The translations under genes were made by a program, and so were the position numbers. From NCBI RefSeq assembly GCF_055900595.2, contig NZ_CM148325.1: a stretch of 64,000 bases of DNA. The stretch is one strand, 5' to 3'. Positions 38,928 through 42,888 of the stretch are shown here, piece by piece. Below the pieces are notes generated by a model. That model ran no database searches. It was given only the letters and a program-made list of their open reading frames with translations, and was not told the DNA's origin. The first letter of the stretch is position 1; each line of letters starts with the position of its first letter.

Positions 38928-39674
38928 ATGGAACAAGCGCATACCCAGCTGATTGCCCAACTGAACGAACGTATTTTAGCGGCGGATAACACGCCGCTTT
39001 ATATTAAGTTTGCCGAAACGGTGAAAAATGCCGTGCGCAGCGGGGTGCTGGAACATGGCAATATTTTACCCGGCGAGCGCGATTTAAGTCAGTTAACCGG
39101 CGTTTCGCGTATTACGGTGCGCAAGGCGATGCAGGCGCTGGAAGAAGAGGGCGTGGTGACACGTTCGCGCGGCTACGGCACGCAGATTAATAACATCTTT
39201 GAATACTCGTTAAAAGAAGCGCGAGGATTTTCTCAGCAGGTGGTGTTGCGCGGGAAAAAGCCCGATACGCTATGGGTTAACAAGCGAGTGGTTAAATGCC
39301 CTGAAGAGGTGGCGCAGCAATTGGCGGTCGAAGCGGGTAGTGATGTCTTTTTGCTTAAGCGTATTCGCTATGTTGATGAAGAAGCGGTCTCTATTGAGGA
39401 GTCGTGGGTTCCGGCGCATTTAATTCATGATGTTGATGCCATCGGAATCTCTCTTTATGACTACTTCCGCAGTCAGCATATTTTTCCAAAGCGTACCCGT
39501 TCCCGCGTTAGCGCCCGGATGCCGGATGCCGAGTTTCAGTCACATATTCAATTAGATAGTAAAATACCGGTGCTGGTGATCAAGCAAGTGGCGCTTGACC
39601 AACAGCAACGGCCTATTGAGTACAGCATCAGCCACTGTCGCAGTGATCTATACGTTTTTGTGTGTGAGGAGTAG
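38928..39674 (+). CDS. yegW: GntR-family transcriptional regulator YegW
   Basis: 248 aa; N-terminal GntR winged HTH, UTRA-type C-terminal domain. Confidence 0.88.
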   Translation: MEQAHTQLIAQLNERILAADNTPLYIKFAETVKNAVRSGVLEHGNILPGERDLSQLTGVSRITVRKAMQALEEEGVVTRSRGYGTQINNIFEYSLKEARGFSQQVVLRGKKPDTLWVNKRVVKCPEEVAQQLAVEAGSDVFLLKRIRYVDEEAVSIEESWVPAHLIHDVDAIGISLYDYFRSQHIFPKRTRSRVSARMPDAEFQSHIQLDSKIPVLVIKQVALDQQQRPIEYSISHCRSDLYVFVCEE

Positions 39675-40613
39675 TTCCTCGCGGGTTGGCGCGCAATCAC
39701 CGCCGCGATGCCCGACAACCCACGACGCCACTGCATTGCCCAGCAATACGGCATCCGCCAGTGGCAAACCAGAGGCCAGTCCAGCTAATACGCCACCTGC
39801 ATGACTGTCGCCCGCCCCAATGGTGTCTACAACTTGCGTTGGAAATGCCGGGATGCAGCCAGAAGCGTTATTGCTGAAATACCATGCGCCTTCTTTATCC
39901 AGACGAACGATCAACGGCGCGGCAAATTTCTCCTGCCATTGCTTGCCAAGTGTTGTTATCTCTGCTGATAAAGCAAAACGTTCGGCGGCAATCTCACCCT
40001 CCTGACGATTGAGTGACACTAAAGGTCGACAGGCCATGATTCGCGCCAGTAATGCATCCGGGATATCGCCAATACGTGGGCCAAAATCGATGAACGGCGT
40101 CACGTCTTGCAGACTCTCCAGCCATTCCACTAACAATTCACCGCAGGGCGAGGCCAGTTGATAACCGGAAAAATAGAGCAGGCTGCCAGGGGCAACGGTT
40201 AATCGCGCCAACCATTCGCGATTCCACTGATTTTCAACACCACTGAACGACATAAACGTGCGTTCACCATCAGGCTCAACCAGCGCCAGACACCAGCCGT
40301 TATCGCCTTCGGCGTTATCGATGAGGCTGATTAATCCTTCTTTCGCCATCCGGTTACGAATAATTTCCGCCCACACACCCTGGCCGAGCGGCAGGGCATT
40401 ACCCGCTTCGATACCGAGGCGCTTTAACGCCACGGCAATATTCAGTGCACAGCCGCCAACGTTAACGCTCTGCTGTTTCAGTTCGATATCGCACCCGCGC
40501 CAGGGCAGGGCATAAGCGTCGGCGATCACATCAATGACTGCCGCGCCAATCACCATAACCGGCTGACGCGTGGTTAATTCAGGCAGCAGCGTGTGTAATC
40601 GAGCGCCGCTCAT
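39648..40613 (-). CDS. yegV: PfkB-family sugar/nucleoside kinase YegV
   Basis: 321 aa; DTIGAGDSHAGG motif of the ribokinase family; 4-bp overlap with yegU. Confidence 0.88.
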   Translation of the reverse strand: MSGARLHTLLPELTTRQPVMVIGAAVIDVIADAYALPWRGCDIELKQQSVNVGGCALNIAVALKRLGIEAGNALPLGQGVWAEIIRNRMAKEGLISLIDNAEGDNGWCLALVEPDGERTFMSFSGVENQWNREWLARLTVAPGSLLYFSGYQLASPCGELLVEWLESLQDVTPFIDFGPRIGDIPDALLARIMACRPLVSLNRQEGEIAAERFALSAEITTLGKQWQEKFAAPLIVRLDKEGAWYFSNNASGCIPAFPTQVVDTIGAGDSHAGGVLAGLASGLPLADAVLLGNAVASWVVGHRGGDCAPTREELLLTHKNV

Positions 40614-41614
40614 GCCGCCTCCCGTTGTTGACGATACTTCGCCAGCGCCGTGGCGTAATGATTAAAATCAAGCTGATTTACCGCATCCAGTTCCGCCTTT
40701 AACGCAGGATCGATAGCGTTAACGCCATGCAACGCGCCGCAAATTGCCGTCGCCATAGCACCGATGGTGTCTGTGTCACCGCCAAGATTGGCGCACAGAA
40801 TGGCGCAACGGTTCGGGTCGGTTTGTGCTAGTTCAACCAGCGCAATGGCGCACGGAACGGACTCAATAGTACTGGTACCTGCCCCAACCACCTGATACAG
40901 CTGTTCGCTGGCGGATTCGGTGCCGTCGGCATTGCGCACAATTTTCAGCGCAATCTCCAGACGTGCTGCCAGTGAGGCGCTGAAGGTAGTGATGCGTTTT
41001 TGCTGTGCATGTCGCGCAATTGAAGGCAGTGAATCAACAATCGCTGACCAGCTTTCTCCGTCAATGGCACGAGAAATCGCCCATGCGATGACTACCGCGC
41101 CTGCCACCGCCAGATCGGATTTATGAGTCGGGCTGGACGCCAGCGCTACATCATCAATAAAGGAATCAACATCACGCGCCGGAAGCAAACAACCTAATGG
41201 CGAGACGCGCATCGCTGCGCCGTTGGTCACGCCATTGTTTTCCAGTTCAGCAACGGGTTTACCGTCGCGAATGGCGTTGAGAGCAATCTTCGAGGTCGGA
41301 CCTAGTACGTTTTTGTTAAAGGCGTCGAAACGCAGCGCCCAGTCGAGAATATTACGCCCAATCAGATCCGGATCGATCTCGCCTTCACGTTCCAGTAACG
41401 CATCCGCCAGACACAGCGCCATTGAGGTATCGTCGGTGAATTCGGCGCGGTTAAAATAACAGGCCGCGTTATTCTCCTTTGGGCCAGGCAAAAAACGGTC
41501 AATCCAGCCAAAGTGTGCTTTGACGCGGGAGCGTGGCCAAAGCTCGGACGGCATCCCCATCGCATCCCCTAACGCCTGCCCGTAAAGAGCACCGAGAATA
41601 CGTTCTGTTTTCAT
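40610..41614 (-). CDS. yegU: ADP-ribosylglycohydrolase-family protein YegU
   Basis: 334 aa; 4-bp overlaps with both yegT and yegV. Confidence 0.88.
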   Translation of the reverse strand: MKTERILGALYGQALGDAMGMPSELWPRSRVKAHFGWIDRFLPGPKENNAACYFNRAEFTDDTSMALCLADALLEREGEIDPDLIGRNILDWALRFDAFNKNVLGPTSKIALNAIRDGKPVAELENNGVTNGAAMRVSPLGCLLPARDVDSFIDDVALASSPTHKSDLAVAGAVVIAWAISRAIDGESWSAIVDSLPSIARHAQQKRITTFSASLAARLEIALKIVRNADGTESASEQLYQVVGAGTSTIESVPCAIALVELAQTDPNRCAILCANLGGDTDTIGAMATAICGALHGVNAIDPALKAELDAVNQLDFNHYATALAKYRQQREAA

Positions 41615-42888
41615 TTAACTTCCCCTTGTGTCAACGCAATATCGCGATCATCGACCTTGATAGCCGTAATTTCGTTGTCGGATTCGCGGAAAAAAATCAT
41701 GAACAGCACGGCGATAATGGCAATCATCACCGCACCGAAAGTCCACATCCCGGCCCAGTTGAAGGTCAGCCCGTTTACCGGTTCCTGATAAGCAAACATC
41801 TTCTCCATCATCACGCCACCAAGACGATAGCCGAGCAAACTGCCGAATCCCTGGCAGCAGAGCGTGATCAGCCCCTGCGCAGCGGTACGCATATGCACGG
41901 GGGCTTTTTTATCGACATAGATGTAAGCGGTAACGTAGTAAAAATCGTAACTTACTCCATGCAGCAAAATGCCGAGGAACAGTAACGCGTAGGTGAAATA
42001 TTCATCCGCACTACCGTAAATAAAGAAGCCATAGCGGATCGCAGCGGTGACCAGACCAAGTAATAATACCTTTTTGATACCAAAGCGTTTGGTAAAAAAC
42101 GGCAATGCCAGCATAAAGAAGATTTCAGAGAACTGGCCGAGCGTCATCCAGCCGGTGGCGTTTTTCATGCCGACTTCTGTCAGATAACCGTTGGCAAAGA
42201 TGTAATAGAACGCCAGTGGCATCGCAAACAGGAATGAACAGAAGAAAAAGACGAGGAAGTTTTTATCGCGCAGCAGGATCAGCGCATCCAGGCCGAGCAT
42301 GACTTTAATGTCCATTTTGCCGGTGCTTTTTGGCGGCGTGTCGGGCAGGAAAAACGCAAACACACCGAGCAGAGCAGAACTTCCGGCGGTAATCAGCAGC
42401 GGGATGTTAGTCGGAGAGATATCGGCATAACCCAGCATTTGCGGCAAAAATCCACATGCCAGACCGGAGGCAATCCAGCCGATAGTGCCCATCACACGAA
42501 TGCGTGGGAAATCACGCTCCACATCCGGCACGTTGGCAAAAGCGATACTGTTAGTCAGCGCAATGGTCGGCATATAGGTTAGCGAGTAGGCCAGCAGTAA
42601 CGGGAAGAACCCGGCAAAAGTGGTCTGTTGCGCAGCGAAATACATCAGCGCCGCACCAGCGAACATCAATACCGCCAGCACTTTCTGCGCCGAGAAAAAG
42701 CGGTCAGTGATGGAGCCAACCAGAATTGGCGACAGGATCGCCGCAATGGCGGTACAGGCATACGACCAGCCAATTTCTCCGGCACTAAAACCGCTTTTAC
42801 TTAACCACAACCACAATGGCACAAACCACGCGCCCCAGATAAACCATTCAACAAACATCATGAACGACAGCTTTGCTGTTGTTTTCAT
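41611..42888 (-). CDS. yegT: MFS nucleoside:H+ symporter-family transporter YegT
   Basis: 425 aa, 12-TM pattern. Confidence 0.88.
   Translation of the reverse strand: MKTTAKLSFMMFVEWFIWGAWFVPLWLWLSKSGFSAGEIGWSYACTAIAAILSPILVGSITDRFFSAQKVLAVLMFAGAALMYFAAQQTTFAGFFPLLLAYSLTYMPTIALTNSIAFANVPDVERDFPRIRVMGTIGWIASGLACGFLPQMLGYADISPTNIPLLITAGSSALLGVFAFFLPDTPPKSTGKMDIKVMLGLDALILLRDKNFLVFFFCSFLFAMPLAFYYIFANGYLTEVGMKNATGWMTLGQFSEIFFMLALPFFTKRFGIKKVLLLGLVTAAIRYGFFIYGSADEYFTYALLFLGILLHGVSYDFYYVTAYIYVDKKAPVHMRTAAQGLITLCCQGFGSLLGYRLGGVMMEKMFAYQEPVNGLTFNWAGMWTFGAVMIAIIAVLFMIFFRESDNEITAIKVDDRDIALTQGEVK

Follow-up and report, generated by a model that had tools for sequence, protein, structure and literature searches.

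The window analyzed here, 64,000 nucleotides of contig NZ_CM148325.1 (RefSeq assembly GCF_055900595.2), contains the yegW / yegVUT / fbaB region of E. coli, and our subject is its genes yegT, yegU and yegV together with the regulator gene yegW (ggaR). We tentatively propose, at slightly less than even chances, that the yegTUV operon, under the control of a repressor, serves to take up a non-canonical riboside and to break it down or salvage its base. In the proposed pathway, YegT would import the riboside by proton symport, YegV would phosphorylate its ribosyl 5-hydroxyl with ATP, and YegU, a two-metal hydrolase of the ADP-ribosylglycohydrolase (ARH) fold, would cut the bond at ribose C1 to yield a free aglycone and ribose 5-phosphate, the latter entering the pentose phosphate pathway. 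YegW, now named GgaR, would sit on several GGTAT boxes arrayed across the yegT promoter until a phosphoribosyl-type ligand, most likely the product of YegV, releases it; ADP-glucose, the published in-vitro effector, may mimic this natural ligand.

As a locus, yegTUV is ordinary and already well annotated, and the characterization of its regulator dates from 2024. A 5.5-kb query across the yegTUV region has matches in 5424 of 5426 complete E. coli genomes, and the locus is core in E. coli. RefSeq labels the products as nucleoside permease (YegT), ADP-ribosylglycohydrolase family protein (YegU), carbohydrate kinase family protein (YegV) and GntR family regulator (YegW). The genes and their junctions are:

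41611-42888, minus strand: yegT, 425 amino acids, first gene of the operon
40610-41614, minus strand: yegU, 334 amino acids, middle gene of the operon
39648-40613, minus strand: yegV, 321 amino acids, last gene of the operon
38928-39674, plus strand: yegW (ggaR), convergent with yegV
43145-44197: fbaB, divergent neighbor of yegT, with a 256-bp spacer between them
41611-41614, minus strand: 4-bp ATGA overlap of the yegT stop and the yegU start, read in the sequence as ...GTT AAA TGA with the ATG inside
40610-40613, minus strand: 4-bp ATGA overlap of the yegU stop and the yegV start, read in the sequence as ...GCG GCA TGA
39648-39674: 27-bp tail-to-tail overlap of the yegV and yegW coding sequences at their 3′ ends

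A first, sequence-only reading of this DNA had placed a transporter of the major facilitator superfamily (MFS), an ADP-ribosylglycohydrolase-family hydrolase and a PfkB kinase at these positions, and both the open reading frames and the Pfam matches agree with it. The ATGA-type overlaps it described are indeed present at both junctions, where Shine-Dalgarno-like purine runs lie within the upstream genes (AGGGGA 5′ of yegU, GGGAGG 5′ of yegV). As to yegW, which had been called convergent in one place and divergent in another, only the former description stands, since yegW lies on the plus strand and overlaps the 3′ end of yegV, whereas the divergent gene is fbaB. In bacterial operons, no junction type is commoner than the four-base overlap, and the overlaps of yegTUV are, therefore, unremarkable when taken alone. 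A single 3.3-kb yegTUV mRNA has been detected with yegT and yegV probes (PMC10819704), and this one transcript, together with overlapping stop and start codons at both junctions, identifies yegTUV as an operon whose genes are probably translationally coupled.

The pairing of YegU with YegV reaches across phyla. A search of 1.8 billion representative proteins with YegU returned 6945 homologs, and a scan with a YegU-family profile, using one genome per species, gave 77 loci, whose gene content was counted by tblastn. A YegV-like PfkB gene lies at most 4.5 kb from the YegU homolog in 62 of these 77 loci, on the same strand in every case. Among the taxa with both genes are Enterobacterales, Vibrio, Aeromonas, Gilliamella, Bacilli, Lactobacillales, Lachnospiraceae, Dialister, Parasutterella, Streptomyces and Chloroflexi. 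The best 150 of the 6945 homologs include several two-domain proteins, in which PfkB and ARH domains (Pfam) are fused in both orders and which show BLASTP homology to both YegU and YegV; the named examples of such fusions come from Actinobacteria. A GntR/UTRA regulator is found near the YegU homolog in 49 of the 77 loci, and a transporter of the nucleoside:H+ symporter (NHS), NCS1 or PnuC type adjoins the pair in 60 of the 62:

26 loci: NHS transporter with the pair, in Enterobacterales, Vibrio and Gilliamella
21 loci: NCS1 permease (PF02133) with the pair, usually in the order GntR-U-NCS1-V, in Bacilli, Lactobacillales, Dialister, Aeromonas, Streptomyces and Chloroflexi
13 loci: PnuC-family carrier (TIGR01528, above the nicotinamide-riboside-transporter cutoff), in the order U-V-PnuC, mostly in Lachnospiraceae

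At one fusion locus, a metagenomic PfkB::ARH gene follows a GntR/UTRA gene and an energy-coupling factor (ECF) transporter. The surroundings of further fusion proteins were left aside, being too short or too unrelated. Based on the counts of pairing, regulators and transporters, we conclude that the conserved unit consists of a regulator, a carrier, a kinase and a hydrolase, and that the carrier is swapped among non-homologous families, all of which handle nucleosides, nucleobases or vitamin ribosides. This swapping narrows the candidate substrates; by analogy, that of yegTUV would be a small nucleoside-like or vitamin-like molecule. The coupling and fusion of YegU and YegV and the nature of these transporters also support the earlier suggestion that a ribosylated compound is salvaged or catabolized.

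YegT is a full-length NHS member of the MFS (PF03825, Nuc_H_symport, 3.5e-183, residues 1-405) and scores 652.6 bits against TIGR00889, above the cutoff of 446.1. Its crystal structure was solved in a 2025 JBC paper, in which uridine, adenosine, cytidine and guanosine gave no significant binding by isothermal titration calorimetry and the residues contacting uridine in NupG (F143, Y318, F322, N228) were found not to be conserved in YegT (PMC11979927). Since YegT neither bound the four nucleosides nor shares these contacts, the substrate of yegTUV is probably not a canonical nucleoside of the kind handled by NupG and XapB.

YegU belongs to the ARH family (PF03747, ADP_ribosyl_GH, 2e-66) and has the motifs GDAMGMPSE (16-24), TDDT (60-63), TNGAAMR (130-136), PTH (162-164) and GGDTDT (278-283). 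The ligands of the ARH two-metal site, T60-D61-D62-T63 and D280-T281-D282-T283, and the catalytic glutamate E24 are present. In 30 YegU homologs, the most distant with about 31% identity, the catalytic glutamate and the metal-binding motifs vary little or not at all; D61 and D282 never change, and D17, T60, D62, D280 and T283 are at least 90% conserved. The AlphaFold model (mean predicted local distance difference test score 97.1) has 17 helices and the all-helical ARH fold. Its top Foldseek match is MJ1187 (1t5j; template modeling scores 0.82/0.90), followed by the T. thermophilus ARH-related structures 2cwc and 2yzv, ARH3 (0.78) and DraG (0.75/0.85). MJ1187, the nearest solved relative, was deposited as a hypothetical protein, and a solved structure of YegU or YegV was not found among the PDB entries searched. 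YegU stays below the equivalog models of DraG (TIGR02662, 79.3 bits, cutoff 337.05) and Tri1 (NF041672, 68.8 bits, cutoff 490). In structures of ARH3 with ADP-ribose, His168, Ser134 and backbone glycines hold the pyrophosphate, while Phe129 and Tyr135 clamp the adenine (Latimeria numbering, PMC6309922). In a profile alignment, ARH3 His168 aligns with the family-invariant His164 of YegU and Gly138 with the conserved Gly132, whereas the clamp residues Phe129 and Tyr135 align with the variable Glu123 and Val129. With its phosphate contacts apparently kept and its adenine clamp apparently not conserved, YegU seems to recognize ribose phosphate but not adenosine, which would fit a 5-phosphoribosyl-X substrate.

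YegV is a PfkB-family kinase over its full length (PF00294, 1.3e-54), with the motifs GAAVID (23-28), GG (53-54), NRQE (202-205) and DTIGAGD (263-269). It reaches no NCBIfam equivalog: it scores 80.1 bits against the ribokinase model TIGR02152 (cutoff 299.65) and 59.3 bits against NF008353 (cutoff 341), and it falls short of the pseudouridine kinase model. A 2025 curation paper still calls it an uncharacterized sugar kinase (PMC12506659). Our literature check found no established substrate or pathway for the operon, nor a substrate for YegU, YegV or MJ1187, in full-text literature whose coverage leaves out most subscription journals.

The kinase probably acts before the hydrolase, judging from alignment and analogy. 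This order is suggested because YegU keeps the catalytic glutamate, the metal ligands and the ARH3 pyrophosphate contacts but apparently not the adenine clamp, because YegV, far below the equivalog cutoff, is not a ribokinase ortholog, and because PnuC-type facilitators, as known from PnuC/NadR, depend on a kinase to trap their substrate. In the reverse order, YegU would cleave the riboside to free ribose and aglycone, after which YegV would phosphorylate either the ribose, as a second ribokinase, or the aglycone. The E. coli gene order of transporter, hydrolase and kinase agrees with this, ribokinases are among the top sequence matches of YegV in NCBIfam and the PDB, and the fusions and the co-location fit either sequence of reactions. 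Nevertheless, we consider hydrolysis before phosphorylation unlikely: the distance of YegV from the ribokinase cutoff speaks against it, E. coli already possesses RbsK, the characterized ARH enzymes act on ribose carrying a 5″-phosphoester, and the phosphate-contacting histidine and glycine of ARH3 are invariant in the YegU family.

YegW combines a GntR winged helix (PF00392, 3.1e-16, residues 29-87) with a UTRA domain (PF07702, 6.1e-36, residues 108-242) and, consequently, belongs to the HutC subfamily of the GntR family. It reaches no equivalog cutoff (PhnF model, 128 bits, cutoff 156.8). HutC-type repressors commonly respond to phosphorylated pathway intermediates and, for this reason, the natural inducer of GgaR may be the product of YegV. 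Saito et al. (2024), who renamed YegW to GgaR, found a single genomic target using chromatin immunoprecipitation on microarrays, electrophoretic mobility shift assays (EMSA), Northern blotting and quantitative reverse-transcription PCR, and reported an about 30-fold repression of yegTUV mRNA (PMC10819704). Their paper defines no GgaR motif. The following features were located in and upstream of yegT:

42919-42961, minus strand: candidate GgaR operator, with GGTATT (42961-42956), GGTATTA (42950-42944), GGTATT (42937-42932) and an inverted GTACC (42923-42919)
42943-42972, minus strand: predicted sigma-70-like yegT promoter, with −35 TTCACC (42972-42967), an 18-nt spacer and −10 TATTAT (42948-42943)
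42061-42081, minus strand: operator-like copy GGTATCAAAAAGGTATTATTA inside yegT (nucleotides 808-828 of the open reading frame)

On the minus strand 5′ of yegT, positions 42965-42918 read caatGGTATTtaaaaGGTATTATTAaatGGTATTgtcatcgcGTACCt. Across 16 aligned promoters from Enterobacterales and Vibrio, the surrounding columns vary, but GGTATT, GGTATTA, the third GG-TA box and GTACC show little or no change. The boxes overlap the predicted promoter, a call with 9 of 12 consensus matches in a region in which promoter-like sites are as many as expected by chance. The 190-bp probe-2, which GgaR bound best, contains the candidate operator (PMC10819704). The conserved GGTAT boxes are a likely GgaR operator. 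The intragenic copy GGTATCAAAAAGGTATTATTA falls in probe-5 (nucleotides 571-869 of the open reading frame), the weaker second GgaR site (PMC10819704). It was rejected as independent evidence and adds little support, since the invariant peptide GIKKVLLL encoded there accounts for most of its conservation. A CRP-like half-palindrome, TGTTACCGCGGTCAAG (42975-42990, minus strand), was seen just 5′ of the yegT −35 element, with TGTTA and TCA columns conserved in the 16-species alignment. As a CRP site it was not retained: it has 3 mismatches, and 200 such matches were found in the window against 223 expected, so that we regard it as conserved sequence only.

The publications on GgaR propose another role, namely that yegTUV handles ADP-glucose directly, by import, hydrolysis or formation, and thereby controls glycogen, with ADP-glucose as the physiological effector. 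In EMSA, 10–100 µM ADP-glucose frees GgaR from DNA, unlike ADP and glucose, and the ggaR deletion mutant holds 2–3 times more glycogen and grows poorly on minimal glucose (PMC10819704). Further, Almagro et al. (2018) found a yegV deletion to be glycogen-deficient on ADP-glucose medium; however, yegT and yegU were not among the hits of this screen (PMC6195507). We regard a direct role in ADP-glucose metabolism as improbable. The 2024 study shows no enzymatic link, and in the words of its own authors the basis is “somewhat ambiguous” (PMC10819704); ADP and glucose were the sole control ligands in the EMSA, which included neither ADP-ribose nor nucleotides. An ARH-type hydrolase cutting ADP-glucose would lower glycogen rather than raise it, and the residues of the ARH3 adenine clamp are, by alignment, not conserved in YegU. 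Moreover, the PnuC and NCS1 carriers that accompany the module transport bases and small ribosides, uncharged or cationic, and not ADP-sugars. Speculatively, the glycogen phenotype could be an indirect effect of a nucleotide-cleaving pair overexpressed 30-fold, e.g., via an AMP pool inhibiting GlgC. That YegU is instead a true de-ADP-ribosylase of protein or nucleic acid, like DraG or Tri1, with the adjacent kinase and transporter being incidental, is very improbable: its family name and fold, its weak matches to the DraG and Tri1 models and its structural resemblance to ARH3 and DraG would fit, but it scores far under both equivalog cutoffs, an ADP-ribosyltransferase gene was not found nearby, the adenine clamp appears not to be conserved, and a metabolic role is favored by the same-strand PfkB pairing, by the fusions and by the transporters for small molecules at 60 of the 62 loci.

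Several points weigh against the proposed riboside pathway as well. In the literature searched, we found no enzyme assay for YegU or YegV and no ligand of YegT. ADP-glucose is the sole effector tested for GgaR, and the reported phenotypes concern glycogen, which the riboside model does not directly predict. The order of reactions rests on alignment and analogy, and hydrolysis could trap the substrate of a PnuC carrier, too. The 77 loci are best tblastn hits that include about 20 close Enterobacterales relatives and are not independent samples. A conserved downstream enzyme for the aglycone was not found in the neighborhoods examined, which gives no handle on the identity of the aglycone.

The anomeric configuration of the substrate is a separate matter. 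Characterized ARH enzymes are alpha-specific at C1″, cleaving alpha-ADP-ribosyl-arginine and alpha-NAD+ but not the beta forms (PMC9738213). Because of this specificity, and because YegT did not bind the four canonical beta-nucleosides, the substrate of yegTUV is possibly an alpha-riboside. It is conceivable, though doubtful and argued from analogy, that with YegU and its relatives a first group of glycosidases acting on small-molecule alpha-ribotides is at hand and that the module recovers ribose 5-phosphate and base from alpha-ribosides, which the ordinary beta-specific nucleoside enzymes could not handle. Two groups of candidates can be named. Cobamide lower-ligand alpha-ribosides, e.g., alpha-ribazole, would fit the ECF and His_Phos_1 neighbors of some homologs; free alpha-ribazoles occur in microbial communities, and a kinase/transporter salvage route for them is known (PMC6461909). 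Alternatively, alpha-nicotinamide riboside or alpha-nicotinamide mononucleotide derived from alpha-NAD would fit the association with PnuC and a nadC neighbor in Leuconostoc.

A close functional parallel is pseudouridine catabolism by PsuK/PsuG (E. coli YeiC/YeiN), whose cluster also contains a nucleoside transporter: a PfkB-family kinase makes the 5′-phosphate, which a metal-dependent glycosidase then splits into ribose 5-phosphate and base. The logic proposed for yegTUV, in which import would be followed by a PfkB kinase and a metal-dependent glycosidase, is the same, with the order of the last two steps taken over by analogy; however, the yegTUV glycosidase has the ARH fold (PF03747) and no domain of the PsuG/indigoidine-A family. 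With ARH1, ARH3, DraG and Tri1, YegU shares the fold, the two-metal site and the catalytic glutamate, and the bond that it would cut at ribose C1″ is of the kind cut by them. These four act on ADP-ribose attached to proteins or poly(ADP-ribose) and pair with ADP-ribosyltransferases, whereas YegU pairs or fuses with a kinase, travels with small-molecule transporters and appears to be without the adenine clamp. Vitamin ribosides are captured by a transporter and a dedicated kinase in PnuC/NadR (nicotinamide riboside) and CblT/CblS (alpha-ribazole; PMC6461909), and PnuC-family and ECF carriers adjoin YegU/YegV homologs. These routes stop at the phosphorylated riboside as the useful product, whereas the YegU/YegV module adds a hydrolase; since this hydrolase is obligately coupled and even fused, the riboside would be taken apart. 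GgaR resembles NagR, TreR and PhnF in its GntR helix-turn-helix and UTRA domains, in being a local repressor of an adjacent catabolic operon and in the GGT-A type half-sites of its candidate operator. In contrast to these regulators, this operator would be an array of direct GGTAT repeats with one inverted box instead of a single palindrome, and its gene is convergent with, and overlaps, its target.

The YegU/YegV pair would represent a new variation on nucleoside catabolism, narrowed enough for direct testing. It is common, in some cases as a fusion, among gut Firmicutes, Proteobacteria and Actinobacteria. If the proposal is true, the ARH superfamily gains small-molecule ribotide hydrolysis beside its known action on ADP-ribosylated macromolecules, a gap in the metabolic map of E. 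coli is filled, a nutrient or repair substrate exchanged in gut communities is identified, and the puzzling glycogen and pressure-resistance phenotypes of ggaR mutants obtain a mechanistic footing.

Further observations concern the surroundings of the module in other genomes. Rfam scans of 16 PnuC-type and NCS1-type loci found no riboswitch attached to the module, only an unrelated tetrahydrofolate and an unrelated thiamine pyrophosphate element several kb away from it. Neighboring genes vary and include nadC in Leuconostoc, a GMP reductase in Gemelliphila, a 2-aminoethylphosphonate/thiamine-type ATP-binding cassette (ABC) system in Parasutterella and an MtaA-like protein in Epulopiscium. The nadC gene of Leuconostoc holzapfelii (L052, 7082-7978; equivalog match with 277 bits, cutoff 198) lies directly upstream of YegU-NCS1-YegV. 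A second nadC was seen in Blautia (cluster c78, L066), giving 2 of 77 loci and a hint at pyridine nucleotide metabolism. In the metagenome contigs L078 (1181-11875) and L079, the ECF genes upstream of the PfkB::ARH fusion encode an S component fused with ATPases as well as CbiQ, and the fusion gene is surrounded by genes for DeoC, an NCS1 permease, a His_Phos_1 phosphatase and a metalloenzyme resembling phosphopentomutase; taken together, these genes look like a larger pentose-salvage cluster. YegU homologs with 61–66% identity occur without YegV and YegT in Edwardsiella and Serratia (L024, L027, L032) and in Brenneria (L023), with a GntR regulator adjoining in Edwardsiella and Serratia and a two-component system as well in Edwardsiella. 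The hydrolase can, accordingly, exist without the kinase in some Enterobacterales. One YegU homolog of 692 amino acids (P0162) carries two tandem ARH domains (residues 7-340 and 354-689).

At the other end of the operon, where yegV and yegW converge, prediction gave no terminator-like hairpin between their 3′ ends. Since the two coding sequences overlap without a predicted terminator, derepressed yegTUV transcription should run antisense into yegW and could act as a feedback switch. The yegV-yegW pair is among the excludon candidates derived from RNA-seq (PMC12288877). Enterobacteriaceae loci share the overlap, whereas Pectobacterium and Budvicia lack it. Finally, the neighboring yegX (glycoside hydrolase family 25; about 38058-38876, plus strand) is broken in the present strain by an in-frame TAA at 38448-38450. 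Because the 99.9% identical NZ_CP098223.1 has TAT at this codon and an intact gene of 272 amino acids, this is either a nonsense mutation or a sequencing error.

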